DNA of 64,000 nt from Haliotis rufescens. Lineage: Eukaryota. The notes below the pieces were generated by a model that was given only the letters and a program-made list of their open reading frames with translations, did no database searches and was not told the origin of the DNA. Positions 1-51,600 of the stretch are shown in pieces (positions within the stretch are counted from its first letter, which is position 1; every line of letters starts with the position of its first letter). Both the position numbers and the translations under genes were made by a program. The stretch is from contig NW_025964001.1 in assembly GCF_023055435.1 (NCBI RefSeq), positions 41,416,001 to 41,480,000 on the forward strand, read 5' to 3'.

Positions 1-45
1 CTCCATATCCCCCGCTTCATCCTTGAAGACACAGACACTCATGGC

Positions 46-270
46 ATGTCTACTACGGTCGTCTCCCCAGAGATTGACAGTGACGTTTCTACTCTGTCTC
101 AGAAGCGCTCAACCTCGTCTTACGTGGTTGAAGATCGGGACCTAACGCACTTAGATACCACAGTCCGCCGTACCCTCCCACTCGTGTCTACTATTTTGTC
201 AGCCATGGACGCACTCTCCGTCTCTCTCTCCACTCATTCCCAAGAAGATGCCTTTACTCGGGGATTAATC
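46..270 (+). pseudogene. gag-like ORF1 of DIRS-C, 5' piece (continues at 10541)
   Basis: SSYVVEDRDLTHLDTTVRRTLPLVSTILSAMDALSV aligns with DIRS-H gag SKILVEERHLESIDTAVRHQLQPPAMLSTAIEALSV. Removing element A restores the frame ...RGLI|NLTQDKLMQILDLLTHHAGSMTALR. Confidence 0.8.
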
Positions 271-575
271 TAAAAGTTAAACGAGACTTACCTGTAAGTT
301 GAAGGTTGACTGTGGTTCTATCAGCTAATCTTAAGTAATGGAGGGATTACATGAGATTGCAATGCGCATGCGCGAGTCAGACTTTAAAGTACGAGTGTGT
401 ATCAGTAATATTACTTATACCCAGAAAAAAGGGTGGGAATCCACGGGAGGGCATGTAATCCCTCCATTACTTAAGATTAGCTGATAGAACCACAGTCAAC
501 CTTCAACTAACAGGTAAGTCTCGTTTAACTTTTAGATTCTATCAGCTAATCACGTAATGTTCGAGATTCCATAAG
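267..575 (-). repeat. 3' terminal structure of DIRS-A (right ITR + extension and internal complementary region)
   Basis: 267-353 is an almost perfect inverted repeat of 452-538. 537-571 is the reverse complement of the element's other end (~10505-10540). Confidence 0.92.
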
Positions 576-834
576 ATTTTAAAGACTGATATACACTCGT
601 ATGAGCTGGGAATACACCATAAGTGGAAACCTTTATTCCAAATATGAAATAAGAATGGCAATGTTCAAAAGAGTTTTTATTGTTAAATGTATTGTTCTCA
701 AATACAATGACAGTGAAGGTAGCTACCCTTGACAATATAACCATCATAAGTCGCACATAAGCATTGTGTACACTGACTTAAAAGTACATTGCATTGACTG
801 ACAAGTCCTGCCAGCTTTTCCAACCCAGCAATAT

Positions 835-1794
835 TTACTCAATCACACTGCCCAACACTGCTGATTCAAACAGACCTCTGTCCCTTACAATAGGCTTGTG
901 ATAGAATGTGGCAAATGTTCTCTCTGATGACCAGTCAGCCTTTTCCAAAATGTTTGAAATGGGTACAGATGCACACCTCGCTGCAGAGGTGGAGGCAGCA
1001 CGAACACTATGAGCTTTAAATACCTGAATGTCCACACCAGACTTATGAAGTCCGAGTTTTGTCCATCTCGACAGTGTGTCTCTTGACACTGCATTGTGAG
1101 GCCTAATGTAAGTTATAAATAGTTGTGTAACCGATCCTCTGATGCTCTCAGTTCTGCTGAGGTAACACTTCAAAGTGTTCAGTGGGCAAAGTGACTCGTC
1201 ATGAGAATAGGCCCTGACTTCAACTGGTTTAGGCAATCTACCTGGTCTAGACTGCTTGACTAATTTGTCAATATGAAATGTAAACAAAGTATCATCCTGA
1301 CTCCTTGTCATAAGGTCTATATCTAACAAGTGTAAGGTCTGACCTCTCTGGGCAGACACTAATGAAAGCAACAATACTAACTTGATAGTCAAATCCTTTA
1401 AAGATAAATCTTTCAGCGGTGTAAGCTTCTGAACAAAACACAAAACATCTGTCACACTCCACATCTCTGTATAACGTGGTTTTGGTGGCAACATCTCGAA
1501 AACACCCTTCAGAGACCGACACACTACAGGGTGTGATCCACAAGGTCTATCGTCCAAATCAATAAATGTTGATAACACACATCGTGCTGTGTGTATAGAA
1601 CTGTAACCAAGTTTTTGGTTCAATAAACACATAAAAAAGTCCAACACCTGTCCTAGATGTGGTCTAGTAAAATCAATTTCCCTTTCACAACAAAAGAGTC
1701 TCCATTTCCGGATATATGTAGCTTCCTGGTGCCAGAACGCCACGAACTGATGATGACACTGGTTGCATCCGAAGAAATGCCTCTGTCTGCGCAT
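835..1794 (-). CDS. Tyrosine recombinase (integrase) of DIRS-A
   Basis: Catalytic motifs SAQRGQ (R), LCPLNTL, HSVR (H-x-x-R), ADW and TFYHK (Y). Overlaps the RH/MT ORF as usual in DIRS. True N-terminus uncertain. Confidence 0.88.
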   Translation of the reverse strand: MRRQRHFFGCNQCHHQFVAFWHQEATYIRKWRLFCCEREIDFTRPHLGQVLDFFMCLLNQKLGYSSIHTARCVLSTFIDLDDRPCGSHPVVCRSLKGVFEMLPPKPRYTEMWSVTDVLCFVQKLTPLKDLSLKDLTIKLVLLLSLVSAQRGQTLHLLDIDLMTRSQDDTLFTFHIDKLVKQSRPGRLPKPVEVRAYSHDESLCPLNTLKCYLSRTESIRGSVTQLFITYIRPHNAVSRDTLSRWTKLGLHKSGVDIQVFKAHSVRAASTSAARCASVPISNILEKADWSSERTFATFYHKPIVRDRGLFESAVLGSVIE

Positions 1795-2695
1795 ATTTGC
1801 CGGAGAGTAGGAAAGCTGTCAGATTCAGTCTCTTTCCTAGCGGGTGAACCTTCCCGTCCAGTGACGTCACCACAGTCTTCCCTTTGGGCAACTTGACAGG
1901 CCTACAACAGATCATTTTGATTAATTGCGAAAACCATGACTGGGTTGACCGTAGTGGAGCAATAACAAGCGCATCTGCTTTATCTGACTGTATTTTCTGC
2001 AAGCACTTAGACAAGAGACAAAAAGGTGGGAAGCAATAAATGAGCTCTTTTGACCATGACAAACTGAAAGCATCTACAGCTTCGGCTTCAGGCTCTGGCC
2101 GCCAACTGACAAAACGTGGAAGCTTCGTGTTTAAACGTGAAGCAAACATATCTATGGCTGGATTCACACCAAAGTGTTCAAGGATTTTCTGAAACACAGT
2201 TTTGTCCAAAGACCTCTCAGTTCGCTCAGAAAAATTTCTTGACGCTCTGTCAGCTTCAACATTTGTCAGTCCCGGCACATGAGCCACTGTCAACCACACA
2301 CTATGTTCTATACACCAGAACCAAATTTCCCTTGCAAGATCATTACAAACTTTAGATTTTGAACCTTCCATAGCTTTTAAGTAAGCCACTGCTGTAGTAT
2401 TATCACATAAAATGTGGACATGTTTTCCTTGAAATGACTCAGTCAGGGAGAAAGCTTGAAGGGCTAGATAGACAGCTTTCATTTCCAAGGCATTAATATG
2501 GAGCTGCTTCTCCTGGAGTGACCAACGCCCTCCTATAGACTTCTTGTTATTACAAGCCCCCCATCCTAATAGACTAGCATCAGTACTAATTTCCATATCT
2601 GGCTCGGAGGAAGTTGTAATGTGTTTCTCAGCACCCATGGCATTGTCCTTCCACCATTTTATTTCCTGCTTAGCATCCTCTGATAATACCACCAT
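1685..2695 (-). CDS. RNase H + DIRS methyltransferase-like domain of DIRS-A pol (frameshifted from RT part)
   Basis: RNase H: STDASLLGWG, HINALEMKAV, CDNTTAVAY, HVPGLTNVEADRASR. MT: IDMFASRLN, DAFSLSW, YCFPPF. Confidence 0.9.
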   Translation of the reverse strand: MVVLSEDAKQEIKWWKDNAMGAEKHITTSSEPDMEISTDASLLGWGACNNKKSIGGRWSLQEKQLHINALEMKAVYLALQAFSLTESFQGKHVHILCDNTTAVAYLKAMEGSKSKVCNDLAREIWFWCIEHSVWLTVAHVPGLTNVEADRASRNFSERTERSLDKTVFQKILEHFGVNPAIDMFASRLNTKLPRFVSWRPEPEAEAVDAFSLSWSKELIYCFPPFCLLSKCLQKIQSDKADALVIAPLRSTQSWFSQLIKMICCRPVKLPKGKTVVTSLDGKVHPLGKRLNLTAFLLSGKYAQTEAFLRMQPVSSSVRGVLAPGSYIYPEMETLLL

Positions 2696-2720
2696 CGTAT
2701 CAAGTCACCATAATTATCCG

Positions 2721-3038
2721 TTATGCCTCCGTTTTTTCCCTATCTAGTTGTCTGTAGTGCAGTGGTCCGAAAATGACAGCATGGAATGTGCTTACAAATA
2801 GACCTAGCAACTGAGCCACTGTCCTTACAGAACATTGTTGCTGAGTCAAAACTAAATTACATTTAGTTTGGATAGCCTGAGCTTTGTCATCTGGTAAAGC
2901 CAGTGTCATTTTCTCTGAGTCAATGTGGAAACCAAGAAATTTTATTCTAGTAGATGGTTCTAAAACAGATTTCTCAAAATTAACTGTAAAGCCAAGTGAA
3001 CTGAAGGCTCTTGACATTTCACATACTGAAACTGAACA
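2721..3038 (-). pseudogene. Reverse transcriptase of DIRS-A, C-terminal piece
   Basis: LGFTVNFEKSVLEPSTRIKFLGFHIDS. Joins in frame to 8388 when element B is excised. Confidence 0.9.
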
Positions 3039-3592
3039 ATTACATTAAGTAATACGTTACCACTGTTATACCGAGGCTGTTGTCTCCCACAACTGCTGCT
3101 ATAGCGAAATCTACCACAGAGATCTCAATTACCTCATGCAGCACATGCGTAGCCACCTAGCTGCCATGTGACACCCTTCACTCTTGTCTCTTCGCTTGCT
3201 CTAGCAAGACGTACAATAAACTGCTCAAGCGTTCCTGTTTCTCCGACCATTCGGTGATATTTATTACTGTTTATTCTCTTTAATAAACTGTGCTTTTACG
3301 GGGCGTTTGCTGTAACTACGCTTGGAAATATTTTTCCCGCCAAAAGGAAATATTTTTCCCGCCCTTTTTTTTTTCTATATACTTGCGGGGTGTCTCGTAT
3401 GCACGTTGCGTCTTACGTTCCCCTGTTCTAGTATATCTTGGGTTTTTTACATCACTTATTCCTCTATATGTTATATGTGTATGTTCTATATTCCCATTGC
3501 TCGTTTATTTTCTTGTGAAAATACTCGTTTGTGACTATTTGTGGTGCGTGTGTTGTAACCATGTTTTGCTCTTTGTTCATAGTACAAACAAA

Positions 3593-4697
3593 ATGTCTGA
3601 CATGGATGTTTCGCCGTCCTCCACCCCCTCTACCCCCACACCAGGAGCTGCGGGGTGTGCCGCAAGCGAGCGCTACCGGCTGTATGTGCAGTCCGTTTCC
3701 ACCCCTGTGGTGGCCGGCTCGTCCGGTCGGGGTCCCCTTGCGGGTACCACCACCACGGCTGCGGCGGATCCCTTGGCGGCCCGTGGGCTGTCCGGGGTTT
3801 AGCTTGTGGACTCCAAGCTGGCGGCCTTATCTCAGGATAGGCCGCTGGCTGTTCCGTCCCCGGCCACTTCGGTGGCCGCGGGGTCAGACGCAGGGTCAAC
3901 CGGTACGGCGACGGCTCCCGTGGTCACCGGTCCTTCCCCCGAACCATTGCTCCCGCTATCGGTTAAGGACTGCGTGGCCATGGTTTATGACCTCTTTGAG
4001 GACATGCCCCGGCCGGTACCGCGGGGAATCCACGACTGTGGGTTCCTCCGAGGTATACGATGAGTCTTCCGACGCGGCTTTCCCCGCATCAACCTTGCTG
4101 CGCGGTATCAAGCCTTCCTTGGAGAACGCCTTCGCGGCGGCCTCCGGTCGGGGTCTCCCGTTGCCTCCGACGTCTTTTGAGAAAGGGTTTATTCCCGGTA
4201 CATGACCTTGCCTTTCCCGAGGCTGGTCCTACCGCGGAGGCCCATGTTGAGCGGTTGGGTGTCCGTGCCCCACCGGCTGCTACGGTAACGCAAGCTACCT
4301 TGCACCAGCTGGACGCCCTCGCTCAGCACTCCATGTCTCACGGAGACACTTACTTGGCTGCAGCGGCCCGTCTGGTCGAAGGTTCTCCCACGGACCGTGA
4401 CCAGCGCATTTACAACTGCCTGCTCAGTTTAAATGTTTCCCTGGAGTACGTTGCCGAGGACTCTCGGCACACACTTGCTCTTGTTGGGTCCCTGCATAGG
4501 CGCCTGGGTGCCGCTCCTAACCGGAGCGCGCCCCAGGCTGCTGCGGCCGGTAGGTCTAAGGGGTCAGGTTCTTCTTCCTCTGGGAAGTAGCCCCGCCCTG
4601 AGGGCTCCGGTATGGGCAATCAGCTGCCCTTTCGCGGGAAGACGGGGAACTGGGGGAAGCCCAAGTCGTCGACGGACGGCAAGGGCCCCTCCAGGTG
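3593..4697 (+). pseudogene. gag-like ORF1 of DIRS-B (stops/frameshifts)
   Basis: Starts MSDMDV at 3593; low-complexity P/A/S region; basic C-terminus; position between left ITR and pol. Confidence 0.7.
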
Positions 4698-4789
4698 ACT
4701 CTCATTGGAGGGGTTCGTATGCCGACAGCGCCAACTTCGGTTGGCCCTTAGGCGAACCCGAGTCACTTGGCCCTGGACAGTTGCGCCTG

Positions 4790-6475
4790 CCGCAGCCTGT
4801 CAGGGCCCCCTCTCCTTCCCCAGTGGGAGCCAGACTCCAGACTTACTGGGAGAATTGGGAACAAGTGTTCGACGACCCGTGGGTGGTCAACACGATTCGG
4901 TACGGCTTTCGACTTGATCTCAAAGCGAATCCGCCGCTCACCGTTGCCCCGTTGGCAGGTTTCGATTCGGAAACCGATCTTCCCATCCACGCCGATGCCA
5001 TCGGCAGGTTGGTGGAGAAGGGGCAGTACGGGAGTTAGCTCTACCAGAAATAACACCGGGGTTTTACTCCAGGATATTTCTCGTTCCCAAGTAGGACAGT
5101 GCCGAACTCAGAATGATTCACACGTCCGCTCCCTGGCTGTTCACCCGGTTAACCACCCCCATAGTGGGGTTCCTCCACAGGAGGGGTGTCCGGTACTTCG
5201 CGTAACTGGACGACTCGCTAGTAGCAAATCGAATGATGGACATCCTGTCATGCCATCTCGTTTTCGCACGTCGGCTCGTTGGGGTGGATTATCAATCTCC
5301 CCAAGAGCGAGTTAACCCCTTCTCAGAACTTGCTGTTCATCGGAGGTCGGTTCAACACGGTGTCCCATCGCCTCTTTGTCCCCCCAGACCGGTGGCACAA
5401 GATTCAGGCGATGATTGCCAAAGTCTTAGCGGTGCAACAGACTGTTCACTTTTGGGAACAGCTGTTAGGGCTACTTGTATCAGCCCAGGACTGCACCGAA
5501 CGGGGTCGTCTCCAACTCCGCCCGCTGTAACGGTTTTTAATCCAGTTGTTAGCAACGGAGGTGAACATTGCGACCGTCTCCCTCCCGGATCGGCTCCGAC
5601 CGCATCTGGAGTGGTGGATGGTCCCTTACAATGTCTTATCAGGAGTCTCTATGCGGCCCTACCGGGCCACGTTGAACCTGTATACAGACGCCTCTCTAGT
5701 GGGCTGGGGCGCCCATCTAGAGGGGGAGGTGAGCTCGGGGCTGTTGTGCGTAGACGAACTAGGTCTTCACATCAATTGTCTCGAGTTCAAGGCAGTGATC
5801 AACGCAGTCAATCACTGGAAGCATCGTCTCCTCGACGCCCGGCTCATGCTGGCGACCGACAACACGACGGTAGTGTTCTATGTGAACAAACTGGGGGGAA
5901 CCCACAGTCACTCGCTACTCGATCTCACGTTCGAGTTTTACGCTCTGGTGGACAGTGTCCCGTGCCAGATACGCGCCCGTCACATCCCAGGTGTGCGGAA
6001 CGTACTAGCCGATGCTCTATCGAGGCCTCAGGATCCGAGCCCCACAGAGTGGATGCTGAACCCAGTAGTGTTTCAGTGGCTGTGCGAACGTTTGGGTCGT
6101 CCGATGGTCGACCTGCTCGCAACGCGGTTCAACAATCAACTCCCGTTGTTTGTATCACCAGTCCCGGACCCGAGGGCCATCGATCACGATGCTCTCGCGT
6201 TAGACTGGACAGGCTTGGACGCTTATGCTTACCCGCCGACAGCGTTGAAACCACACATTCTAAGCTAGCTCTGAGGAGTTCGCTGTCGAATGTTACTGAT
6301 CGCGCCCATGTGGCCGAACAGATCGTGGTACCCTGACTTGCTGACCCAGGTCACGCAGTCACCACTTCCACTGCCTGTGAGACCGGATCTCTTGATCCAC
6401 CCTCACACCTGTCAGCTTCATCCAAACGCAGGGCAGTTCAATCTGCACGCGTGGATGTTGTCACCGAGCGTCTGA
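4790..6475 (+). pseudogene. pol (RT-RH-MT) of DIRS-B, disrupted
   Basis: PVGARLQTYW; internal RT deletion (LRMIH|TSAPWLFT); YLDD mutated to *LDD; YTDASLVGWG; VDLLATRFN; YAYPPT. Confidence 0.88.
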
Positions 6476-7461
6476 GGAGTAAAGGTTTTTCTCGCCGGGC
6501 GTCTCGGGCATACGTTAGTATGCATCGTGATTCTACCCAGAAGGTGTATAATGCACGTTGGGTTATTTTCACGAAGTGGTGTTGTAAACATCACATTCAT
6601 TCGCCAGATAAGGTATATGTGCAGGATATTGCTCGTTTCATGTCTCACTTGCGAGAGACCCGGAAACTCTCCGGGGGTTCCATTGCCAACTATGTCTCGT
6701 CCGTTGCTACGGTAAGGGACGTTGTTATGTGTACCAGTCTCTCCAAAGAGCCGGTGATACGGGGTATTATCAAGGGTTTCAAACAGCACGATCTTAAAAA
6801 GGGCCGCCTTCGGGCACCGGCCTGGGATCTTTCCCTAGTGTTGCAATCACTTACGGAAGCTCCGTATGAACCCTTGCTTAGTGCTTCGTTCCGGCATGTG
6901 ACTTGGAAAACAGCATTTCTCCTCTCCTTTGCCACGGCGGCACGTGTATCCGAAATTCATGCACTCGATGTCGCCAAGGTACGATTCGATAGGGGTGACG
7001 AAGGAGCGGTCCGCCTGGGCCTGCTCATGAGCTTCGTCGCCAAGAATCAGAGAGTCGGGCAAACGGAGAGAGAATTCACTGTAAGATCCCTCAAAGAAAT
7101 CTTACATCCTGCTGATACTGAGGACAGAGCGCTGTGTCCGGTTAGGGCCCTTAAGTATTATCTTAAGGCTGCGAATGAACGTAGACAAGGGCGTGACCGT
7201 CTGTTCATATCGTGTAACCCTAATCGCACGGTTGACATAACTCGCAACTCGATTGCGTTGTGGCTTCGTTCTGTCATCAATCTGGCGCTAGCGGCAACAT
7301 TTGCCCTACACTCGAACATCTCTGTTCGCAGAATATTACGAGGTTGTTACTGGCGTTCTGACTCGGTTTTTGCCAATCATTACCTCAAACAGGTCGCTGA
7401 TGCCGTCGTGGAGAGTGTGCACCGTCTTGGGCCGCGGATCGCGGCGCAAGCGGGCACCTAA
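6451..7461 (+). pseudogene. Tyrosine recombinase of DIRS-B, open frame but H-x-x-R motif missing
   Basis: AARVSEIHAL, LCPVRAL and CYWRSDSVFANHY are present. The segment carrying HEVR in element H is absent (WLRSVINLA|LAATFAL), implying an in-frame deletion. Confidence 0.82.
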
Positions 7462-8387
7462 GGGGTGTGCCCAGCGCAATTCCGAACTCCTCAGGCGTCA
7501 GACCTTACACGGTGGTCAATCTGGGTCGACTCCAATGTTCCCACTGCCGTGGGTACAGGAGTTGGGGTCCCGCAAACCAGCGCACTCACACCACAGGTGA
7601 GGGCGGCTTTTTGTGTGCTCTGTCCTTATTTGTATTTTGACAATTATGTATTTAATTGTCTGTCGTGTATCCCAACCTTGTGATGCATGCTTACAAATAC
7701 TGGAATTAGGTCACGCGCCTCATGCATACTTTTAGTAGGCTTGCTCTGGGATATACGGTCTGAATGAAATTAATTTCCCTCTTTTCGACTGTTTAACCTG
7801 ATCTATGATTAAGCTCACGCGGATACAGTGTTCTCATCCGCTGCGGCGATGAAATACCTATCCAGTGGGGCCGTTTGGAGTCACCAATCGTTTTTGCAAT
7901 GACGACTGAGCCTTACGGTATGCGCTTGACAGTGCTTTGGTATTCCTATAGGGTAACGCCTAGCTAGGTGCATGCGCATCGAGTGCTTCCGCCTTGGTGT
8001 TTACTTCCGCTGGTCGGAAGAAACGCTAGCAGTCAGGATTCGGGTTGTAGGTGCTCCCCGCTGCCTACTGTGGTAGTCAGCCTCGGTATAACAGTGGTAA
8101 CGTATTACTTAATGTAATTTGTAGAATTTTCCTATTCGGAATATTCTATCAGTAATACGTTACCACTGGGCTGCTGCCCGCCCGTCCGTCCCCCGAGCAC
8201 TTGCTCTCGCAAGAGACAAGAGTGAAGGGTGTCACATGGCAGCTAGGTGGCTACGCACGTGCTGCATGAGGTAATTGAGATCTCTGTGGTAGATTTCGCT
8301 ATAGCAGCAGTTGTGGGAGACAACAGCCTCGGTATAACAGTGGTAACGTATTACTTATAGAATATTCCGAATAGGAAAATTCTACAA

Positions 8388-9212
8388 GTTTTCTTTTTCT
8401 GTTGCTTGAGTGAAAGAATCGTCAATATATCCGAGGCACTGATTACCTTGACACCTGAGATAGGAATAGACTGGTTTCAGTATCTTAGTGAATACACGAG
8501 GGGCACAAGCTAAGCCATTCGGCATACATGTAAATTGATAGAGACCATTTCCTCATCTAAACCTGAGATACTTTCTGTGTGCAACATGGACATTTACTGA
8601 ATAGTAGGCATTTGTCAAATCTATGGATGTCATGTAGACATTTGGAGTGATCATGTCCAACACATTCTGCAAGCTTTCCATTTTAAAGTGGTGATATTGA
8701 ACATATTCATTGAGCTGTTTCAAATTTAATATTAGTCTGTATTTTGCACTACTCTTCTTTCTAATAAAAATATTTGAAACAAACTGATCAGCAGTCTCCT
8801 CTGCTGGTTCAATAACATTTTGTTTGAGTAAGATTTGAATTTCTTCACTAATGATAGCACTTTCTTGTAGATTAAATCTAATTTGATGAGGTTCAAACAA
8901 TTGTTTTGGCTTTTCAATAAAGTCAATTCTGAGACCCTCTATGACATTCAATATAAAAGGATCCTTTGTTAGTTTCTCCCACTCATGTAAACATGAAGAT
9001 AATCGACCAGCCATAAAATCAACATTTGAGCAGTCAGACATAGCAAGGTACTCACCTACCTGGCTATCATCTGTTGTCTGTGTACAGCCATCTATTGCTT
9101 GGCCGACTTTCCCCCTCCTCTTTTTTCGGAGAACTTGTTCAAGCGGCCTCTGCCGTTCCCTAAAAAAGGCGTACCATGGAAATATCTGCCTCTGCCACGG
9201 ACTCTCGCCCAT
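8388..9212 (-). pseudogene. Reverse transcriptase of DIRS-A, N-terminal piece
   Basis: AGRLSSCLHEW, SNIFIRKK, YRLILNLKQLN, SIDLTNAYY, then TGA at 8553-8555, then YQFTCMPNGLACAPRVFTK...GYIDD. Confidence 0.92.
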
Positions 9213-10276
9213 CTATTACCACCATATGGATAGGGTTGATATCTGTGCCAACCTCGGCCTCTTCCATGTCCATAGCTAGTAGCCTTGTGACCAAGTCGAG
9301 TTGACATAGCAATGTCTATCAAGTGTTTGGCCACATCCTCCCCGAATAGGTAATCTGAACTTGTCGGAGCACTTGGGGTACACAGTGCACGATAGTGATC
9401 ATTCAACTGTGGTTTTATCAGTTCCTTCCTTCTGAGGTTTAATTCTCTATGGACATAAGCCAACATCGTAAGTGAGTCACTCAACTTGGAAACAATATCT
9501 CTGAACAAAGTGGCTGGCACCTCTTGCTTGTGAGCAATTAAACTGTTCAGTGTATTTGTCACTGCTATGGTCGACTTTATCATTCCACTCTGGACACGCT
9601 GCATTTTTATGTCCTTCGAACATGTGTCTGATTGCAGGGAATCCCATATTAGCTTGTTAATTTCAGGCGTGTTCAAATCCGAACAGTTAGCTGGCTTTTT
9701 CAGGTCTTTTAGTTTCTGTGCGATGACCGCATCATCAAACTTGGTAGTGAATACCTGATGAACCAATTCAGCCAGTTTGGTGTCAATTGGGTCCCCATCA
9801 GTCGTTGTTATCGGCAGAGTTTCTCTGATGAGGTTTACAACTTCTAAACCGGAAGGATCAGCACTGATTTCATCATGCGCATGCACGACTTCCTCTCCAC
9901 TAAGTAGTTCTGTTGCTATGTCAACAGTCCCCGTTTCGTAGATTTTTGCAGTATGTGCCTGACTTGGCGGAATATAATCATCATCATCATCCTCATAAAT
10001 AAAATTCTGCTCATCATCGTAAGCGTAATCTTGTGTAAGGGTGTCAATTCTGCCTTCAAAATCAGACATTCTCTTTTCCATGCGTTCGTTCATCTTGCGA
10101 AATTCGTCAAGCAAAGTCCCAGAAGCATCGGGCGCATGATGATGAGGGGAAGTATGATCTGCTTGAGAAGTGGCAGAAGCTGTCGATGTTGACGGTTTAG
10201 GGGATTTAGTGGCTTTTTGTTTCCCTTTAGAGGATTTAGACACACCCGCGTCGACAGGCCGGGGACTTTTCAACAC
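9092..10276 (-). CDS. gag-like ORF1 of DIRS-A (394 aa, open)
   Basis: Long ORF overlapping the pol start; PEINKLIW...DIKMQRVQ...ELNLRRKELIKP...LFG and an RG-rich tail, typical of DIRS ORF1. Confidence 0.85.
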   Translation of the reverse strand: MLKSPRPVDAGVSKSSKGKQKATKSPKPSTSTASATSQADHTSPHHHAPDASGTLLDEFRKMNERMEKRMSDFEGRIDTLTQDYAYDDEQNFIYEDDDDDYIPPSQAHTAKIYETGTVDIATELLSGEEVVHAHDEISADPSGLEVVNLIRETLPITTTDGDPIDTKLAELVHQVFTTKFDDAVIAQKLKDLKKPANCSDLNTPEINKLIWDSLQSDTCSKDIKMQRVQSGMIKSTIAVTNTLNSLIAHKQEVPATLFRDIVSKLSDSLTMLAYVHRELNLRRKELIKPQLNDHYRALCTPSAPTSSDYLFGEDVAKHLIDIAMSTRLGHKATSYGHGRGRGWHRYQPYPYGGNRWARVRGRGRYFHGTPFLGNGRGRLNKFSEKRGGGKSAKQ

Positions 10277-10820
10277 GGCCTCAGCAATTGTTTTGACTTG
10301 TGGAAAGTTCGAGCGTAATTTTACGCTTAGATCTACTTAGTAGCAAGTTAATAATAACTTTACTCTGTCTGATACTATGACCACACAGTGTGATTATACA
10401 CTGTCTGATAGCAAATGAGTTGAAAATTGTTCCAACTCTAAATGCGTCTGCACTCGCTAAAAGCGCGGTTTGCACTGACTCGCGCATGTGCATTGCAATC
10501 TCATGGAATATCGAACATTACGTGATTAGCTGATAGAATCAACCTTACACAAGACAAGCTTATGCAGATTTTGGACCTACTCACTCACCACGCCGGCTCC
10601 ATGACGGCTCTTCGTTGCAGTTTAAGGCCAAACTGTATCAGCAACCCTGGTCTTCCCGCTCCTTGTTTGCTGACGTGATACAACGGGTCGCACAGGACGT
10701 GCAGAGAGATTATAGCCTTCAGGTCACGGTGGACCTTCTACGTCTCCAGAAAAGACAATTGGAGGTTCAACAGAAAAAGGTCGCCAATATCCCAAATTTG
10801 TTCCTGCCCAGGGCGATTTA

Positions 10821-39600: not shown

Positions 39601-42600
39601 GGGTAGATATCAGATCTACTAAGACATCCCCCCCTCCCCATCTAAAAAGGGTAAAAAAGCTGCCGAGATTGTCTCCCCCGCTCCCTCTCCGGGGGCCGGG
39701 GGAGAAGGCTCGAGGGTCCCCGTAGTAAGCACTGCACCCTCTCCTGCACTGTCTTTGGCAGACTTTTCTGCGTTACTTAAGTCGCAGATGGCGTCGATGA
39801 TGGAGGAGGTAAAGTCTCAGCTCCGAGAGGAGATGCGGACCGAGCCTTCCCCGTTGTCGGCGCCGGACGCGGCTTCGAGACCTTGTGATATGCCCGGCGT
39901 CGGCCGAGGCAGGCAACTTGGTCTCGGGGACGATCTCAGACCGGGCTTCGGCGCCGGCTCGAGGTCGCTCCCCAGCGGAGGGGTGGCGGGCGCCGGCCCG
40001 TGCACTACCGACGCACAATTTTTCCCTAGCGGAGCCAGACGCCTCTTCCGAGGCCGAGGCTTTCACTAGTGGATTCGTAGCCCGGAGCCAGGGGGGTTCC
40101 CTTGGTCTCGGGGACGATCCGAGACCGAGCTTCGGCTCCGGCTCGAGGTCGCTCCCCAGCGTAGTGGTGGCGGGCACCGGCCCGTGCACTACCGACGCAC
40201 AATTTTCCCTAGCGGAGCCAGACGCCTCTTCCGAGGCCGAGGCGTCCACTAGTGGATACCTAGCCCGGAGCCAGGTTGGTTCCCTTTGTCTCGGGGACGA
40301 TCCGAGACCGAGCTTCGGCTCCGGCTCGAGGTCGCTCCCCAGCGTAGTGGTGGCGGGCACCGGCCCGTGCACTACCGACGCACAATTTTCCCTAGCGGAG
40401 CCAGACGCCTCTTCCGAGGCCGAGGCGTCCACTAGTGGATACCTAGCCCGGAGCCAGGTTGGTTCCCTTTGTCTCGGGGACGATCCGAGACCGAGCTTCG
40501 GCTCCGGCTCGAGGTCGCTCCCCAGCGTAGTGGTGGCGGGCACCGGCCCGTGCACTACCGACGCACAATTTACCCTAGCGGAGCCAGACGCCTCTTCCGA
40601 GGCCAAGGCTTTCACTAGTGGATACCTAGCCCAGTGCCAGGTGGGTTCCCTTGAACCTCCGGCACCTCGGCACCGGGACTCGGCCTCGGGCCGGGTGCAG
40701 AGACACGTGCGGGACAGGATTGTCCATGTACTGCCTCAGGTTGCTGCGCCCATGCCAGAGTCGGAGACACCCAACTTGACTAAGGTCAAGCAGGGCCGGC
40801 GGTTGCCCCCCCTTTCCCGTGTGCGGTGCGGAGTTGAAGGCTGCTTACATATGCTTCGAGGAGCAATATCATAATGCATGCCAACAGCTCCGTGTGTCCG
40901 TACACTCCGCGTATCTGTCGGCTGTACAGAGGGAGTTAGCGGGAGAGGGGCCGGCCGACTCTTCGGAGTTGGCCGCGCAACTAACATTATCTTGCGCGGG
41001 ACGCTATTCGTAGCTGTGCATCGCAGATGATGTGCGCTGTTATGTGCATGCGCAGGCGGTGGATGTCGGTATCTAAATACTCGACTTACACACGCCAAGA
41101 CCTACTTGCTTTGCCGTATAAGAGGGTGCCACCCTCTTCCCTGGGGCTCAGCAGGCGGTCCGAGAGGCTGCTCAATTGTATACTTCCATCAAAGACTCAT
41201 AAGGCCTTGTTGGAGGTACCAAGCGTTAAAACCGCGTAAGCGGGCCTCTCCAATTGTCCCCTCCTACGCTAACGCACGGGTCAGACGTCCACACCTGCTT
41301 GGAAGCCGCCGCTTCCTTCAGGTATAAGGGCGCCGTGAGGAGCAAGAGAGGCACGGGCCGGGGCAAGGCAGCTGGTCGAGGCCAACAGCTTTTTCGCGGG
41401 GCTGGGAACGATGGGTTCCCATTAGCGCCCGAAGAGCCCCGGGTGAACCCATAGTCGCAAGTTATCGGGAAAACTCATCCGCTCCTCCACTTTTCCGGGA
41501 TAAAGCACACACCGGTGCCTGCTACCCGAGAGAAGGCGGAATTCCTCCGTGCCGAGGTCGACGCACTTCTTATGAAAGCTGCGATCGAACCGGGTCCCGA
41601 GGGACAGGAAAGCGAGGGCTTCTACTCGACTTGTTTCCTAGTCACCAAACAGTGATCTCAACTGTCGAGACAGGAGAATGGCTAACGTCAATAGACTTAA
41701 AATACGCCTATCTCCACATACCAATACATCCAGAGTTCAAGAAATACCTGAGGTTTTCTTTCGACGGGAGGTGTTATCAGTTCAGGGTTCTACCATTCGG
41801 GATCTCCACGGCCCCGAGGGTGTTCACCAAGCTGATGTTGATTCCCGCCCAAGTGGCCAGGTCAAAAGGTCGGTTCTGCCATCCGTACCTCGACGACTAG
41901 GTTACTAAGAGCTCTATTGCAATCCCTGAGTCAGATAGCTACACAACAAGTGATAGATATTCTGATCACTCTAGGGTGGATGGTCAATCTCAAGAAGTCA
42001 GATCTGAGCCCTACTCAGAATCTAGTCTTCCTAGTGGCTAATTTCAACACGGTGAGAGGACGTGTATCTCTGTCACAAGATATCAAGTCCCTTAAGCGCA
42101 AGTCACACTGCTCGTACATGGCTCCAGTTACTGGACAACATGGCGGCGACAGTGGATTTGGTCTGGCGGGCGCGCTTGAGAATGAGTCCCATTCAACAAG
42201 CACTCCGTCGACTTTGGGCGAACTCGGAAGATCTCGAGACTGTGCTCGAGACTCCGTAGTGGCTCATTACACACCTCCAGTGGTGGACCGAGGTCGGGAA
42301 TCACTCCCGTTCCGTCTCTCACAGTTCAAACAGACGCGTCACTCTCCGGCTGGGGAGGCGTTCTGAATGATCACACTGCCTCGGGACTATGGTCCCAGCA
42401 GGAGATCAAACTGCATATCAATGTGCTAGAACTGAGAGCGGTCAGGTTGGTGTTCCAACGCTTCCCGGATCTGCTTCGTGGCCAAGTGGTTCGTCTAGAA
42501 ATGGACAACCAAACGGCGATGACTTACATCCGGAAGCAGGGGGGAACGGCGTCTCCGTCGCTTCGACGAAAGACGTGGCAGTTCCTACTATAGTGCGACT

Positions 42601-45600
42601 CTCACGATATCAGGGTGCTACCTGTTTATCTCCCGGGGGTGGACAACGTCCGTGCGGACGCTCTGTCTTGCCGGATCCTCGCTCCTCACGAGTGGAGGCT
42701 CGACCCGGGGATATTCGGGATTTTCTCCCTGTTATACAGGTCGTTACAGGTGGATCTGTTTGCGTCTGGGTTAAATAACCAGACACCAACGTTCTGCTCC
42801 CGAGTCCACGACCCGAGGTCGGTGGCACCGGACGCCTTTCAGCTAGATTGGACGGACAGTTCTGTGGGCATTCTCCCCAGTACCTCTGATTTCCAAGGTC
42901 CTGTCTCAGCTAGGCACTCAGCCTGCGCGACTAATTGTGCTCCTGGCACCTCTTTAGTCGGCGCAGAGTGGGTTTCCAGTAATACTCAGGTTTCTGGCTC
43001 AGCCTCCTGTTATATTACCTTTACGACCGGACCTCCTATCCCAGAACGGGGCCCTCCACCCGAATCTCAGGATTCAATGGGTGGCTTGGCCACTGTCAGG
43101 AATCGCCTCCAGAAGAGCGGTATTCCTGCACGAGTTGCAGACACAATACTGGCTTCGCGGAGGGATTCGACAAACGTTCAGTACGATAGATAGGCCTGCT
43201 ATGCGCCCAGGTGTGTCGATAGAGGGATTGCAGATCTTTTTTCTGCAGATCTCGTATCCGTGCTTGAGTTTCTCCAGTCGCGACTAGATGACGGCCTGGC
43301 CGCATCAACAGTCCGAGGGTACTCTACAGCTATCGCAGCTTTTCACGTCCCTGTCGACGGGGCACTTCTGGGTGCACACCCATTAGTGCAGCGCTTTTTA
43401 GCAGGTGTGGACAGGATCCGACCGCCAGTCCGGCGGATCAGTCCCCCTTGGGACTTGTCAATCATTCTAGATTGGCTGTCCGGTCCTTCCTTTCGGGATC
43501 TGTCGTCTCTCTCTCTTCAGCTGTTGAGCTGGGAGACGGCGTTCCTTGTGGTGGTAACGTCCGGCAGACGGGTAGGCGACATTCGTGTTATGTCAGCCGA
43601 TCCCAAAATAACTGTCTTCCATGGGGTCGATAAATATCACCGGGACAGTCAGTTTTCGTCTACCGGACTATTACCGTCCTAGGGTCGCACACAATTCCAC
43701 GTGAACGGCTCCTATTGAGCTACCCGCTCTTTCACAGCCTTCCTCGTCGGGGACCACTGCAAGACATGCTCATGTCTTGGATGTCCGCACGACTCTCAAG
43801 GCCTATATCAGCAGAAATATGGGTGTCCGTAAGGATAACCAACTATTTTGCTGTTACTGCGGTAGGAAGGTTGGCTCACCTGCGAGTAAACAATCTATCT
43901 CGAGGTGGATAGTTTCAAACATTTGTACAGCGTATACGCTTACAGGCAGGGACCCCCCTACCAGGTTGTAGGCTCATTAGGTTAGAGCAGTGGCTGCGTC
44001 AAAAGCGTACGCCGCGGCTCTGCCCATTGAGCAGATCTGCTCCGCGGCTATTTGGAGCCAGCCGAGCACGATTCATCAAACCTTACCAACTCGACAAACA
44101 CTCAAGCGAGCGTACTCGGTTTGGTCAGTCAGTTCTCCGAACTGGGCAAAGTTCTAATCTCTAGCTGATTGAGCATTCGAGATTTTAGACAGTCTTCCGG
44201 TTATACTGCTCAGTAATGGTCCGGATTTTATCTTCTGCGGTCGATAAATATCAGTCCTTACTACTCGATAATACTCGTATTTTGCGCACGCACTCCTTCG
44301 ATCCTCGGGGACCCTCTGGCCTAGCTCAGCGCTGGTTATGGTCTCTCGTGATCTACGCCCTTATATCACTTGTTCAAAAAAGTGTGGGGGGGTGGGAGGT
44401 GTTTCGAGTTCTCAACTTATGACAAGCCGCAAAAAACAGGCTTTATCATAATATATGGTCGACCACGCCCTGTCTCTAGCCCCCGCCTTTCGACGGTGGT
44501 GCCTCACGATAAGGTTGGTTCCATTTATTGAACTCAATATTTTATTCTGTTGAATAATCAAATACGATGTATTTATTTACGCCTGTTGCTGACGGATGCC
44601 ACTTCCTAGATTATCTTTGGGAGTCTGTCTTGATGCAATAAGTGCCCCAAGGAGGATTTAATCAGAAAGAGAATTTTACAAACCTGTAGAGGTTATGAAT
44701 TCTCTGATGAAATCCTCCTTGGGGCACGGCCACCCACCTCCCCACATTCCGTCAGCATTTGACATATGGAAAGTGATTTGGGTGAGAGTTGCTCCCCCTG
44801 GCGTGAGGCGCCGTTGGGGGTGAGGCCCCGTAAGGGTGGTCGTATATCATACAAAAACGAAGTTTTTTGTGTGGTAACATTTTTTATTAAGGAAAATGGT
44901 TACAACTATGTCATATAGATTTTCTTGAGCAAGGAAAATGCAATAAGTGCCCCAAGGAGGATTTCATCAGAGAATTCATAACCTCTACAGGTTTGTAAAA
45001 ATTGTACACAATCTATCTTATCCTGAGATGATTTTGATTTTGGTGTTTACAGCTACCGACTTTGTCGACAGCCACACAGCTATATCGTCAGCAGGTTTCG
45101 TCATCGACTCTACTCCACCCTACCACACAGGCATAAACATACAACTTGACGAAAGATACATCACAGCGCCCATCCTTTCAGTGTGGTACATATTAGTAAA
45201 TTTACGAATTTTTAAACTTATCCTATCTCACACTATGCATTTCTTCTTATTCTTCGAACTTGGTGTGGAAACGTCCTAGAACAAAGTTTCCAGCTTCAAA
45301 AAACACCACTCACTCAAACACATCCCTTACATCACCAATCACCAGTGTGATCATGGTTCACGCACCACTAAAATCCCGTTCAACACAACCCGAGCGTCCT
45401 GATCACCTGACATATCCAGCACCCTCATTCTCAATTCTATCGCTGTGGTGTTAAGAGGTTATTCTTGAACAGAGAAATTTTGTTTGTTTTTGTTTTTTTG
45501 TTTTTTTTAATATATATATATAAAATTTAAATACACGACATCACTACTAAAGTTTACCATTACCACGAAGAGAGAGTGGTATTAATAACGATGTCCACTG

Positions 45601-48600
45601 TGTACCACCTTGCCATTGGATCTCAACTTACTTAGCTTAGTGTTCGATAAAGGCGACTGTTCGTCGGTTCAAGGCGTTGTTTACGGGTTTTCGTGCATGT
45701 TGTTTTTCCTCCGCTTTGAAACCCAAACGATTGTGTTATCTCCTGTAGCTGTACCTTCGTTTTCTTGCCTAACAAAATATTATAGTCAATTTGGCGATGA
45801 TTTCATCGCTATCCGTAGAGGAGGATCGCTTTCCGTCTTGTTTGACTGTTGAGATTCCCGCCTCTGTGCGGACCACACCCCTGTGCACGTGCCCGCTCCC
45901 TGGCTTCTACAGTCATCCCGCATTTAAATGGCCAGTTCATCGTGTTGGACTACGGCCCTTTACTCAGCTTGGGAAGTCAAGCCGTCAACTGAGGGTTGCC
46001 TCTTCCCCAGACACACTTGTTACTCGGGTCATCGCTTCTACAGCGCTCTGAGGATACAGCTACACCTCTCAGGCTTTCTAATGGCAACAACCCTTCTACC
46101 GAAAACACTACAATCGTCGGCGAGGAAGTGATAGCCACCTGACGACGGATCTTCACTCACAGGATCGTCCACCTTCGCTGGATCGTAACGACCGAGTGAT
46201 CAAGGGATCATAGACGACCGAGGGATCGACAGATTGACAGATCACCAGACTTCACCATTATCGACAAAACGCTGATGTTGGATGGACAGTCCGTCAGATC
46301 GTACCTCGGAGGATCAATAGTTTTGCCTCTTCTACAGATCGATACCGAGGGATCCCCATTCTACGATACACATCGATGCATCAACACATCGATACGTTGA
46401 CACATGGATAAATCAATACGTCGACACATGGATAAATCGATACAGTGACACGTCGATACATCGATACGGCGACACATGGATACATCGATACGTCGACACA
46501 TATCGCTTTATATCGCTTTATGACCATATTCTACAAGCAACTGACTGCCTCTACACCCTTGTTTTTCGTTACTCGGGACACCGCTCGTGTGTTGGGAGCT
46601 TTTGACCACGCGATCGGAAAGATCTGTATTTCCTGTTTCTGCGCAAGGGTGAATTACATATCACGCCGAGAATGCTGTTTGTAAACAAGACTACCATGCT
46701 GACTTTGGTACAGACTGATCTCATGCGAGCCGAGCGAAGAATTTACAGTAGTAGTCAATGACTATACGCACGGTCTCTCACATCTTCACAACGCCTGTTG
46801 TCGTCGCATCGATGTTGAAATGCACAGCGCTTTTTTCCGGTGCTTAGGCGATAGAATCCATCATCTCTTCACTAGTTCTCCGCGTCGCCGATCAACCTGG
46901 CAGGACAAGTCATTCCTCACTTATTCAAGACGAGAGCTGGTGAATATCGACATTTTATTATTGGTATATGATCCTAATGTTCTCCTCGTCTATTCAAGGC
47001 ACGGTTTCTGCTACTACTGCTCTTCAACGTGATCCAGATTACCTTGCTTCGTACAAACAGCCAACCAGTAAACTACATCTTCAGTAGCCATGACAGTCAC
47101 TTTGTTAGCACAACACAAATAGTCCAATGAATGACAGTCATATATACATAGGCCCTCCCAAACATCCAAGAGGTGAGTGTTGATTGGCTTAGAGCAACTG
47201 CTCACCTGGTGAGAAGAGGTGATCTGCATCTTCAGCCTCGTTTTTCTACTAGATACTAGATCACACACACGACCGTCAAGATTTTACAATCGCTTTAGAA
47301 CACAATTTTTGTGTTATGTGTGCTTGAACGTCGATCTGCAGACAAACTCATCTCCACATCAACAACTCGAAAGTTCAACATCCTACGTATGGTAATAGCT
47401 ATTACACTTCGGACGACCTCTCCGCTACCCCATTCCAACCGCCACCAGTCAACAGACGACAGCTTGGACTGACATAACAGAAGGAGAACCACCCTTCTTG
47501 TCACTGGCGGTACACTACCCTTTGGAATTGTTTCGACCCATGACTATGCACACGAGCGACTAAACCAATTGCTGTTCATCACACAGGAATCCGTAATACA
47601 TTTTACCTGGATGAAGGGATTCAAGCCTGGATATCAACAATTACTCAGACCACACAACTAGGTTGGTTAATAAATTTTCAGAAGTCAGAATGACAACCAT
47701 TCCAGGATCTCCATTCCTTGGGATGAAGTCTAATGAGCCAGACTAACATCCTAGTACCAGAACAAATTGAGGAAACACCTCTTGTGAAGGACAGTGGAAT
47801 CAATTATGTACGCAGGAACTTGTTTACACAAGCCGGAATACAACAACCACCTGTACATGGATGCCTCACTTCAAGGTCGGGGAGCTCACTTCAACTTGGA
47901 AGTAACATCAGGCCTATGGTCAGAAGCAGACAGCTCTACCACATCAATTATCTGGAATACGAGGCTGTAATCCGGGCAATATTTCTTTGGAACCCACAGA
48001 CAAGAAACCAATGTCTGAGGATCAGGACACTCATTTCAACTATGGCATGCACCTTCAAGGCACAATGAAATCAGAGACACTCCTGCAGTTGACTTTTCAC
48101 ATTTGGTAGACAAGCTCAACTTACAGATAAAGGCAAGACATATACCGGGAGCGGCAAGTGGATTAGCAGACACCTTGTCCAGAAGCTACAGCCGAAGCAT
48201 TCCAACTGGCAATAAAAGAAAAGGTTGTCTACTAATAACCCTATTTGCATGAGATAACATTGTGTCACCAGCACCGGGCCCACTAGCCTGGTCAATCGAT
48301 GCTCTGACATTATCATGGGAGGACCTAAACGCGTATGCGTTTCCCCCACCAGCCTTGATACCAAGGATTCTACAAGATTCTACACACGAGCTACCTACAA
48401 CTGCTGTTGGTAGCGCCTTCTGACCGACAAGAACTTGGGTTCCAGATATCGTCAAACTGGCAGAGATTCCACTACTAAGACTTACAAACTGGTCACATCT
48501 ACTGCTACATCCTCACTCCAATCAGGTCCATCCAAGACCAGAATTATACGAACTTCACGTATGGAGTATATCAAGAGCAGTCTCGTAAGATGATTTCCAT

Positions 48601-51600
48601 TAGAGCAGCTAAGGCAGCCTCCTTAGCACTTCGTCAATCAATGAGAATCTAGGTGATGATAAATGGGAAAGTTTGCAAGATCCAGGATTTTCTGCAGCCA
48701 AGCTATCATACCACTAGTAGCAGATTACCTATGTCACTTAAGAAGTAAAAGGCATCTTATGATTTGACACTGGGCACTTACTGGACAGCGATCAGTTTTG
48801 TACCAACTACACACTTATGGGATAAAACTTGCTACAGTTCCCGAACTGATAGATCTACACAGATCTTTCAGACTGCGAGTAATTCAGGCGTTACCATGAC
48901 TTCAGGTTCCAAGGTTTCTGCTGTCACTGACCTTCGGATATTGATTCGCTCCTACCACCTTATGGACCAATCTTCCAGAATAAGCCGTCCAGCATGGGTT
49001 CTCCCTGTATTCCTCCGTCACTTCTCTTGGCTGACTATAAACCACTTGTGGATAAAACCTCGAACTTTACGTTCATGACGATTTTCCTGCTTGTGTTGAC
49101 TCCTGCAGCTCGTGTTAGAAGGACTCGTGCCTTAGACGTCGGTTGAGTCCGGTTCCAGTGTCTTCAATAAGATAGCATTCAAAGTGAAACAGATCGTCTT
49201 TTCAGCCTCCACCACTCTCTTTGATTGAGAGCTGATGTCATGGAAGACGTCTCACTTTGTCCAGCCTGAGCCTACAAGATCTACTTGAAGGCATCTCAGA
49301 CCATCCGTCACTGTCGCAAGCATGTTTTCATCCACTTGTCGACGGCTGCAACTTCGGATGTATCTTGAACCACCATCTCCACTGGCTGCGTTCTATCATC
49401 CTCAGGGTCTACGCCTCTGAGGGACTACCACCCCAGCTGCTTCCAATCCTCATGAGATGAGGGCAGTGACTTCCACCTTGGCGTTGCATAGTATTGCACA
49501 CTTTCAGCCATCATTGAGGGATATTATGGCGTTCTGATATGGTCTTCACCTCCTACTCCCAGGTCACAGCAGCCACACAGTGCAGATGAGGAAGCCCAGT
49601 GGACTACAAGTCCTAAGTCTGGTTTCCTGTATATACTGCAATAATTTCATTTATTGCTCATGTTAATCGGGTTTCCCAGACAAGCTCCCATTGGGAGGGT
49701 ATATATGCTTGTCTGTTGGGACTTCGGTCTACGTCAATAGAAGTCACCATTTGGTGTGGCCATTTGTTTAAATGGTGTCCCGATCTTCTACCTGCTCACC
49801 TCTGCCTTTGAGCATGTGATGTCTCAGTAGTTGATTGAAGACCTGTGTGATAAACGGGTCAACACCAACAGAAGTCACCATCTGGTGCGGCCATTTGTTT
49901 AAATGGTGTCCCGATCTTCTACCTGCTCACTTCTGCCTTTGAGCATGTGATGTCTCAGTAGTTGATTGAAGACCTGTGTGATAAACGGGTATCGTCAATC
50001 GTTCCTCTTCTCATTCTTACCTTATTCAATCTCTACCTGAGTTTGATAGGTTGACGAAGCGATAAAAGAGATGCCAAGCTGGTCCGCCTTGTGAGGTCTG
50101 TCTTGTAGAACCTGCGCTGGGGACGGGGTGTTTGAAACAAGACCCCTCCTCCTATCCGGGGTGAGGTTAAGTCGTGACCGAGTAGATGTCGCCTAGCTCA
50201 TGGTTACGCGGTCGTTCCTGGAACAGCGTCCTGTGTGAAACCAAGGAACACATGATTCCCCGATGTCATGATGTATATCTCTTGGTAGCACAAAGAGGGT
50301 TTTTTGAAGCAACCCTTACACAAGTTTATCACTAATCCTTGTAAAATCCTTGAATTTTCCTGATTAGTTCAAGCTTCCTCGTGTACGTCTCACGGTTGAG
50401 GTCCTTACAGGCTAGGGTATCTGTGCCCCACCTTCCAACCGTGGGATTAATGCATAGTATGAGATAGGATAAGTTTAAAAATTTGTAAATTTTCTTATAA
50501 ATTGTATGTTTATATACTTATCCTATCTCACACGCTATATGCCCACCCAACCATCCCCGCATCACAGTTACACTAGCCTGAACGCTCAGGAATGAGAATG
50601 AGGGTGCTGGATATGTCAGGTGATCAGGACACTGGGGTCGTGTCGCACTGGATTTTAGTGGTGCGTGAACCATGATCACAGTGGTGATTGGTGATGTAAG
50701 GGATGTGTTTGGGTGAGTGGTGTTTTTTGAAGCTGGAAACTTTGTTCTAGGACGTTTCCACACCAAGATCGTAGAATAAGAAGAAATGCATAGTGTGAGA
50801 TAGGATAAGTATGTAAATATACAATTTATTAGAAAATTTACAAATTTGTTTAAAACAGGTTATGTTCTTCATTAGTTTAAAATCACAGAAACATAAGTTT
50901 GATTATTGTTCACACAACTTAACATTCTGTGCTTGTATACCTTGTGTTAGGCACAGTGGACTAAAATGTATTGATTTCATCATTCACATTTTGTTTGCTC
51001 CATGAAAGTCATTGATGAAGTAGGTTTTCTCTATATTACCATGTTCTATATTTCTGACCACAGCGTAATCAAACAGCCAATAAAACAGTTTCACATGCTA
51101 TGTGTACTCCAACTCTGGACATTGATAGGGCTCAATAATAGTTCGATAACAAGTAGTGTATTTCTTGTTATTTTGTATTTCAGCTGGGAGGGAGTGTTTA
51201 TGGACGATGAGAGTGGTATCAAACAATTCGATGTTTATGTTGGAAGTAGACCAGGTCACCAGGACATCTCGGAATTGAGACGAGTAGAGAACCATTGTGC
51301 AGAACTTGACATTTCCCAAACTATGAAAGATGGTCACAGTTTGTTTGTTACAGTAAAGGTGATTTTGTCAGTGTTATATAACTTTGGATATCCAACATGC
51401 TTTTAGTTAAGGTCCAGATACAATTATGTTGAATCTAGTGGCAGAATGCACGTTGACACTTTTACATTATTATAGAAGTTGAAGAGGCTGAATGGTTGTG
51501 ATAAAACGATCGCATGAGTCCTCAATTCCATGATTTACCATAAGTCATTAAGCATCAAAGACGACATACCGTATTTTCTTGAGTATAGTACGCAGCCATG

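Follow-up and report, generated by a model that had tools for sequence, protein, structure and literature searches.

DIRS1-like retrotransposons combine inverted terminal repeats (ITRs) with an internal complementary region (ICR) and a circular junction, carry reverse transcriptase (RT), RNase H (RH), and methyltransferase-like (MT) domains followed by a tyrosine recombinase (YR), and insert at a short shared core without target duplication, with bursts reported in some species (Piednoel 2011, PMC3266345). Elements with this organization and mode of insertion lie in a 64-kb stretch of the Haliotis rufescens genome (G000:C223:41416001-41480000; genome size 1.33 Gb), hereafter the window, inside a gene for a large protein with EGF and FN3 repeats. 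They depart from the described elements in one respect. Whereas the available text of PMC3266345 mentions no bias toward genes or the transcribed strand, several families here cluster together in sense orientation within introns.

Hot spots in which copies nest within one another are likewise known for DIRS-1 of Dictyostelium (Malicki 2020, PMC7192593) and for notothenioid DIRS1 (Auvinet 2019, PMC6387122). As far as these texts go, such hot spots occupy centromeric or pericentromeric heterochromatin, whereas those described below occupy introns of intact housekeeping genes and have strand polarity. A tie between orientation and the direction of replication or transcription, shaped by both insertion and selection, recalls the strand asymmetry of mammalian L1 and long terminal repeat (LTR) elements (PMC10030826, PMC6240941). 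However, mammalian LTR elements are depleted in sense, and the available text of PMC6240941 knows of no LTR element that prefers the transcribed strand, whereas the YR elements studied here are strongly sense-enriched. Across the open-access literature (subscription papers, e.g. those of Goodwin and Poulter, and supplements lay outside this scope), we found no earlier report of sense-strand clustering in genes, and the available texts describe DIRS hot spots only at centromeric regions (PMC7192593, PMC6387122); the accessible portion of PMC9341512 gives no DIRS orientation data.

Here we report that the window is a DIRS hotspot and that it is an extreme member of a genome-wide class rather than a unique locus. 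The elements themselves are ordinary, and it is apparently their genome-wide insertion pattern that is undescribed. Our leaning, held with little more than even confidence, is that DIRS families favor the bodies of genes active in the germline or early embryo as integration sites, and that transcription or a co-directional replication fork sets the strand.

Results

DIRS elements occupy more than half of the window

Elements were defined by self-alignment, open reading frames (ORFs), Pfam, and comparison with other genomic copies. Eight DIRS1-like pieces total 34,242 bp, or 53.5% of the window, in agreement with the roughly 34 of 64 kb estimated earlier by a reader of the DNA letters (the sequence-only reading). 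These pieces, the host gene, and one other insert are arranged as follows.

1-18537 (extending about 1,772 bp beyond the window at its true 5′ end), plus strand: DIRS C, outermost element of the nest, split by A and by a transposon with terminal inverted repeats (TIRs)
264-10541, minus strand: DIRS A, within the ORF1 region of C and split by B, with ITR and ICR
3039-8387, plus strand: DIRS B, within the RT of A, with a 147-bp ITR at 99.3% identity and an ICR
24141-30367, plus strand: DIRS H, in intron 13, both outer ends kept, RT/RH and ICR lost by internal deletion
27509-30313, plus strand: DIRS G (E family), 5′-truncated, nested in the right end of H
34354-35522, plus strand: mini-B, a nonautonomous B-type DIRS with ITR and ICR, inside a short interspersed element (SINE)
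38668-45000, plus strand: DIRS E, in intron 25, full length and very young, frames broken
45211-50842, plus strand: DIRS F, degenerate, 25 bp past the exon 26 donor
18667-61820, plus strand: host gene for the large EGF/FN3-repeat protein, 44 in-frame exons in the window
10843-14494, plus strand: TIR DNA-transposon-like insert inside C, not DIRS

The eight insertions counted by the sequence-only reading are therefore present as eight pieces, but only five of them struck host DNA independently (C, H, mini-B, E, and F); A is nested in C, B in A, and G in the right end of H. Where that reading saw at least four families, we find five or six (A, B/mini-B, C, F, E/G, and H). Only A is antisense, as had been noted, and the other seven are sense. 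This imbalance is not significant (7/8, p=0.07; independent hits, 5/5, p=0.06), and thus the window alone is no proof of an orientation bias. No LTR element turned up, as stated before, in a check that was partial: window self-BLAST gave no long direct terminal repeat, and there was no integrase match in the 26 ORFs scanned out of 36 of at least 150 aa.

The background was taken from 65 systematic 10-kb samples, 550 kb around 11 paralogs of the host gene, and 198,200 bp of window flanks. DIRS-like sequence makes up 970 of 650,000 bp (0.15%; two matches, one of them a lone RT) in the systematic samples, 2,451 of 550,000 bp around the paralogs (one element, intronic and sense), and 624 of 198,200 bp in the flanks (two fragments). 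As a control, the detector recovered seven of the eight window elements with their own family left out. The window is enriched about 90- to 360-fold, and five insertions in 13-17 kb of host DNA give a Poisson p <=2e-7 even at the upper-bound rate. The genome at large thus does not share the density of this locus. The earlier remark that DIRS elements are low-copy is wrong in absolute numbers, yet they are sparse per Mb. Family B has about 290 copies (584 motif matches, about two per copy), E/G has 126, H has at least 40, C/F has 142 matches, and A has about eight close copies. All motif counts together give a rough estimate of 700-1500 DIRS copies, or 0.3-0.6% of the genome.

The host gene is intact and transcribed and has an empty twin

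All 44 exons in the window stay in frame, as previously claimed, and all are bounded by AG and GT (the exon list was curated and snapped, with coordinates within 18667-61820). Further exons lie upstream of the window and three lie downstream; with these three included the frame is open for 3170 codons, with a terminal stop near window-relative 69011, and the protein is 78% identical to Haliotis rubra LOC124268355. The proposal that the nest at 1-18539 is intronic also holds, because C extends about 1.77 kb past the left edge of the window and the upstream exon (L010:7907-8020, with weak EGF matches) ends in phase 1. An RNA-like contig extends 370 nt upstream of the exon at 18667. At least 13 giant EGF/FN3 genes, the host gene among them, make up a family arranged in tandem clusters (C68 26.7-30.0 Mb, C583 14.6-14.8 Mb, C135, and C457).

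An inverted, intact paralog of the host gene, hereafter the twin, lies at window-relative 120,700-161,000 on the minus strand (L016-L020). The two copies are about 95% identical over 29 kb aligned, the frame of the twin is intact, and the ratio of nonsynonymous to synonymous differences (pN/pS) between them is 0.51. The twin is free of DIRS elements, with empty sites for all five independent insertions, and its intron corresponding to that of the 1-18539 nest measures only about 0.3 kb. At the empty sites of E, F, and H, the crossover falls in cores of 2-5 bp without duplication; the F core is 5 bp and shared. The laden gene and its empty twin form a natural control pair. A 51-bp unit, present in about two copies in the twin, is expanded about sevenfold at 38247-38611, just before E.

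Exon junctions were checked in RNA-like contigs, in which the host gene is spliced, and thus runs X13 and X17 are RNA-derived. In the 7710-nt X13 contig, exons 10, 14, 19, and 22 occur at offsets that match the exon sums (538, 503, and 336 nt) exactly. This contig spans the H/G and mini-B introns, and its leftover length fits the rest of the transcript. Its pieces differ from the window at 1, 1, 0, and 1 sites, whereas the twin differs at 6, 3, 5, and 6 there, which indicates that the contig derives from the DIRS-laden copy (copy 1). The RNA-like contigs of both runs are of the copy-1 type at the listed diagnostic sites, in animals that may or may not carry the insertions, and the twin is absent from the listed RNA-like contig pieces. 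With 3170 open codons, canonical splice sites, and spliced contigs carrying copy-1 alleles, the host gene is not an untranscribed pseudogene.

A redundant twin, the pN/pS value, and ITRs of 150-230 bp that could pair would suit an account in which relaxed selection, or the tolerance through ITR fold-back suggested by the sequence-only reading, lets random insertions build up. We consider this account very unlikely and largely refuted, because a density about 100-fold above that of unselected DNA is beyond what tolerance gives, because the laden copy is the one represented in RNA-like contigs, and because essential single-copy genes show the same pattern (see below). Moreover, fold-back is orientation-symmetric and applies to any DIRS element anywhere, so it explains neither the clustering nor the sense bias.

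Contigs from other animals bear on whether the assembly itself inflates the cluster. A contig of run X7 begins in the last 27 bp of E, passes through exon 26, and departs from the window at the start of F, whereas contigs of X1 and X5 enter F by 24 bp. These contigs, from a comparison of four DNA runs, have flank support of <31 letters on one side and hint that the presence of E and F differs among animals, with haplotypes that have E but lack F and others that have F, so the assembly may merge haplotypes. A mosaic or artefact is nonetheless the least credible account that we consider, since the junctions are precise ITR ends at sites that are empty in the twin and the pattern recurs at other loci.

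DIRS copies cluster and share orientation across the genome

Genome-wide counts exclude the window and cover 269 copies on contigs of known length and 329 copies for orientation. The B and C/F motif lists give positions only, because ICR and end look alike and orientation is not callable. Among the 269 copies, 15 pairs lie within 20 kb of each other where 1.5 are expected (maximum of 6 in 500 simulations), and the position lists of three large contigs contain 12 close pairs against 0.9 expected.

Neighboring copies also point the same way. Pairs are co-oriented in 18 of 20 cases within 25 kb, 11 of 17 at 25-50 kb, and 6 of 10 at 50-100 kb, and distant pairs are at chance (7/21 at 100-300 kb, 37/70 at 0.3-1 Mb). 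Neighbors from different families agree in orientation in all ten cases within 25 kb, and in 23 of 29 clusters every copy is on one strand, where 13.4 such clusters are expected. The locus-directed integration put forward by the sequence-only reading finds support, although as an instance of a pattern seen across the genome and not as the property of a special locus.

DIRS elements lie on the gene strand of other host genes

Seven clusters were fetched out of 47 listed pairs, and six of them lie in conserved genes. These are mTOR, TRRAP, and PIKfyve, each with a Protein Data Bank (PDB) match, and genes with TPR, Rubis-subs-bind, and UCH domains identified by Pfam, which we take to be TTC37, SETD3, and USP34; no validated gene was found at the cluster at C1:47.3 Mb. 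In the six genes, the gene strand carries 20 of the 22 elements, and four of the 22 are located past the outermost exon call at one end. The mTOR locus (G000:C35:26.205-26.305 Mb, L221-L230) closely resembles the window, with eight DIRS elements of four types in 100 kb, seven of them on the gene strand.

Single copies were represented by 76 flanks of 1.48 kb (80 loci minus three self-hits and one tandem duplicate). Exon calls in these flanks number 21 (15 sense and 6 antisense), where the random rate would give about 8. Pfam, run on all 21 calls, validated four, all sense (acyl-CoA dehydrogenase, NUSAP, HOOK, and a weak CCCH finger). PDB comparison of seven chosen exons validated SMC3, COP9 subunit 2, major vault protein, and farnesyltransferase beta, and none of the three antisense exon calls among the seven. 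Validated single-copy exons are thus 8/8 sense. Paralog C68a of the host gene carries the only DIRS element among the 11 paralogs, which is intronic and sense, and with C68a included the validated host genes are 15/15 sense (p=6e-5). Counting every exon call, unvalidated ones included, 20 of 25 are sense (p=0.004).

This distribution fits poorly with the earlier suggestion that the locus is a small-RNA trap, a source of PIWI-interacting RNAs (piRNAs) or small interfering RNAs kept by selection. One transcription unit with many families and many broken copies is what such a trap might contain. Uni-strand traps, however, usually hold antisense elements. The copies here are sense in introns of protein-coding housekeeping genes such as mTOR and TRRAP, unlike the antisense transposable elements of a uni-strand piRNA cluster, and other transposable element classes are not piled up in the window. 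A single miRNA-Seq run placed three reads on 19.7 kb, repeats included, which is too few for power. We judge a trap to be a highly improbable explanation.

Two SINE families have orientations of their own. SINE S1 (window 55526-55753 type) occurs 19 times in sense and twice in antisense in the cluster genes (L221-L253), with 12 of the 19 in TRRAP, and a tRNA-derived SINE (window 59621-59787 type) is sense in 4 cases and antisense in 21 in the FN3 paralogs (L081-L135).

Insertion sites share short cores and CpG-poor flanks

Junctions of 17 further copies likewise show a short shared core without target-site duplication. The right flank of E is constrained only to [AGT]TTT (30 copies), and the left flank of H to AT plus a weak A at -8 (20 copies). 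These short cores rule out a site-targeted retroelement with a long conserved target. They also speak against att-like targeting, which was considered for F because its 20-bp target (window 45191-45211, overlapping the exon 26 donor region) matches its own right end at 18/20 bases, a likeness observed for the window copy of F. The sequence-directed integration offered by the sequence-only reading is insufficient, since the targets are AT cores of 2-5 bp that are present on both intron strands. Indeed, the sense/antisense ratio of RTTT in introns is 0.98-1.32, too small to yield the bias.

Flanking DNA is CpG-poor, with a median observed/expected (o/e) CpG of 0.50 against 0.70 (p=3e-4; 70 flanks, six with flanking DIRS sequence removed). 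Since duplication, 93 CpG sites have decayed in the laden copy and 45 in the twin, against 61 and 52 in the control. In invertebrates methylation concentrates on active gene bodies (PMC8857917), and low CpG may mark gene-body methylation in the germline. Together, these observations suggest that germline-active gene bodies are the likely compartment of insertion.

Such a compartment is too large to produce the full clustering by itself, and thus either some smaller group of genes or a feedback effect of resident copies must contribute. Resident elements would attract later copies in the same orientation through bound recombinase or local chromatin, as would fit the nesting of three of the eight window elements and the insertion of DIRS-1 into itself (PMC7192593). 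Feedback would also account for the contrast between a full copy 1 and its empty twin, and for a degree of clustering beyond what the CpG-poor fraction can give. Yet nested copies are often opposite to the element that holds them (A relative to C, B relative to A, and an E inside an E), and feedback leaves sense founders and single copies unexplained, including the eight validated ones. As a full explanation it seems improbable, although it may act in addition to integration into active genes.

Structure, age, and antisense signals of the elements

The DIRS order of ORF1, RT, RH, MT-like domain, and YR is present, as judged by matches to RVT_1, RT_RNaseH, Dam (weak), and Phage_int_SAM_4; a Phage_integrase match (E 7.7e-5) occurs in a sister B copy, and several domain matches are below Pfam cut-offs. 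ITR lengths are 67 bp in A, 147 in B and mini-B, 231 in C, 212 in E, 218 in F, and 148 in a reference copy of H. An ICR near the 3′ end matches both termini in A, B, C, E, F, mini-B, and the H reference, and is deleted from the window H. The inverted termini rule out Ngaro/PAT elements, which have direct split terminal repeats.

In C, whose left end is in L010 outside the window, RT, RH, MT, and YR are degenerate with an RVT_1 match, the ITR is 95.7% identical, and the ICR is at about 18140-18230. A retains gag (9092-10336), RT (8553-9212), RH/MT (1685-2704), and YR (835-1818). Family B is young, with YR identity of 93-100% across 110 scored copies. The left end of H is common to 40 scored copies, and its deletion was seen by alignment to a fuller copy. 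G is 87-94% identical to E, has an RVT_1 match, and has a defined right junction. The SINE around mini-B (about 34288-35734) is antisense to the host gene, and the joints of other SINE copies skip mini-B. The ITR of F is 95.4% identical. The insert at 10843-14494 (3.65 kb) has inverted termini of about 350 bp at 83% identity and broken ORFs, in which no Pfam match was found.

E has ITRs at 99.1% identity, a perfect ICR, and 99.35% identity over 6331 bp to a copy on C35. Its 3′ ends are identical in 30/30 copies, while the window copies have broken frames; sister copies about 99% identical over 6.3 kb have broken frames nonetheless. This combination suggests a nonautonomous subfamily mobilized in trans. 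A Cys/His-rich, zinc-finger-like segment starts ORF1 of C and B (L010:8558-8752, L233:6730-6933). It is a candidate targeting module, and Pfam gave no support for a chromatin-reader role of this segment.

The elements also carry signals through which selection could act. The main rival to strand-specific integration holds that insertion into active genes is blind to strand and that antisense copies are purged because of their poly(A) or splice signals or because of transcripts that silence the host. Antisense poly(A) hexamers outnumber sense ones by 7 to 2 in B, 5 to 3 in E, 4 to 2 in F, 8 to 6 in A, and 2 to 0 in mini-B, and DIRS sense strands are mostly T-rich, as introns are. Both antisense nested cases (A in C, and E inside E) sit within another element, a SINE family is sense-biased too in two of the cluster genes, and for human LTR elements, whose bias runs the other way, selection is the explanation (PMC6240941). 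Conversely, the hexamers are reversed in C (2 vs 4) and H (4 vs 7), the bias is present in the E family, in which 3′ ends are 100% identical, and an antisense H persists in mTOR. We therefore regard purging as an unlikely explanation, albeit one to be taken seriously.

Discussion

The pattern to be explained is that several DIRS families pile up in introns of intact genes on the gene strand. Bacterial tyrosine recombinases can recombine folded single strands, which offers a precedent. The cDNA of DIRS-1 is single-stranded (PMC7192593), and under preferential integration into active gene bodies such a cDNA, or a folded circle junction, may recombine with a strand exposed by transcription or replication. 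The recombinase would then take its target in one orientation, set by transcription or by the co-directional fork, and host splicing would presumably remove the inserts with the intron. A stronger claim, that abalone DIRS use their tyrosine recombinase to place a single-stranded intermediate into transcribed housekeeping genes in a strand-specific way, with many families meeting, co-oriented, in introns of the same essential genes, and making DIRS the first retroelement group with a hard-wired sense preference, is possible rather than probable, and we advance it tentatively.

Several observations weigh against integration guided by germline transcription. As the data contain no newly arisen insertions, a bias at insertion is not distinguished from selection, and antisense AATAAA/ATTAAA exceeds sense in 5/7 elements, as selection would need. 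CpG-poor DNA makes up about 39% of the genome, far too much for 100-fold clustering; o/e values are nearly as low in the twin (0.55) and in several paralogs (0.57-0.66), which are almost empty, and the extra CpG decay of the laden copy may result from the insertions themselves. The RNA-like runs may come from tissues other than the germline. The seven clusters were chosen with the knowledge that most pairs were co-oriented, and the PDB-checked set comprised four sense exons picked because they were recognized plus three antisense ones. Five loci have unvalidated antisense exon calls, and one H copy in mTOR is antisense. Finally, the sense bias of SINE S1 means that part of the bias may belong to the host genes and not to DIRS.

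How DIRS recombinases pick their targets is an open question, and the available text of PMC7192593 states that their specificity is untested. In the textbook pattern, intronic retroelements are usually antisense-biased, and a strong sense bias in essential genes reverses it. The bias also provides a sharp test of single-stranded DIRS integration at transcription bubbles or forks. It could further explain the twofold capture of DIRS ORF1 as an alternative exon in vertebrate genes, since TMPO and ZNF451 represent in-frame-capable landings of DIRS1-like elements in two unrelated genes (Abascal 2015, PMC4495291), although these are fixed, exonized relics, unlike the elements described here; the weak LAP2alpha matches of G parallel the TMPO case. 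The available text of PMC4495291 does not address insertion bias, and the words "orientation" and "strand" are absent from it. For the abalone itself, the young and probably polymorphic inserts of 5-6 kb in mTOR, TRRAP, and SMC3 are candidate functional variants in a farmed mollusc.

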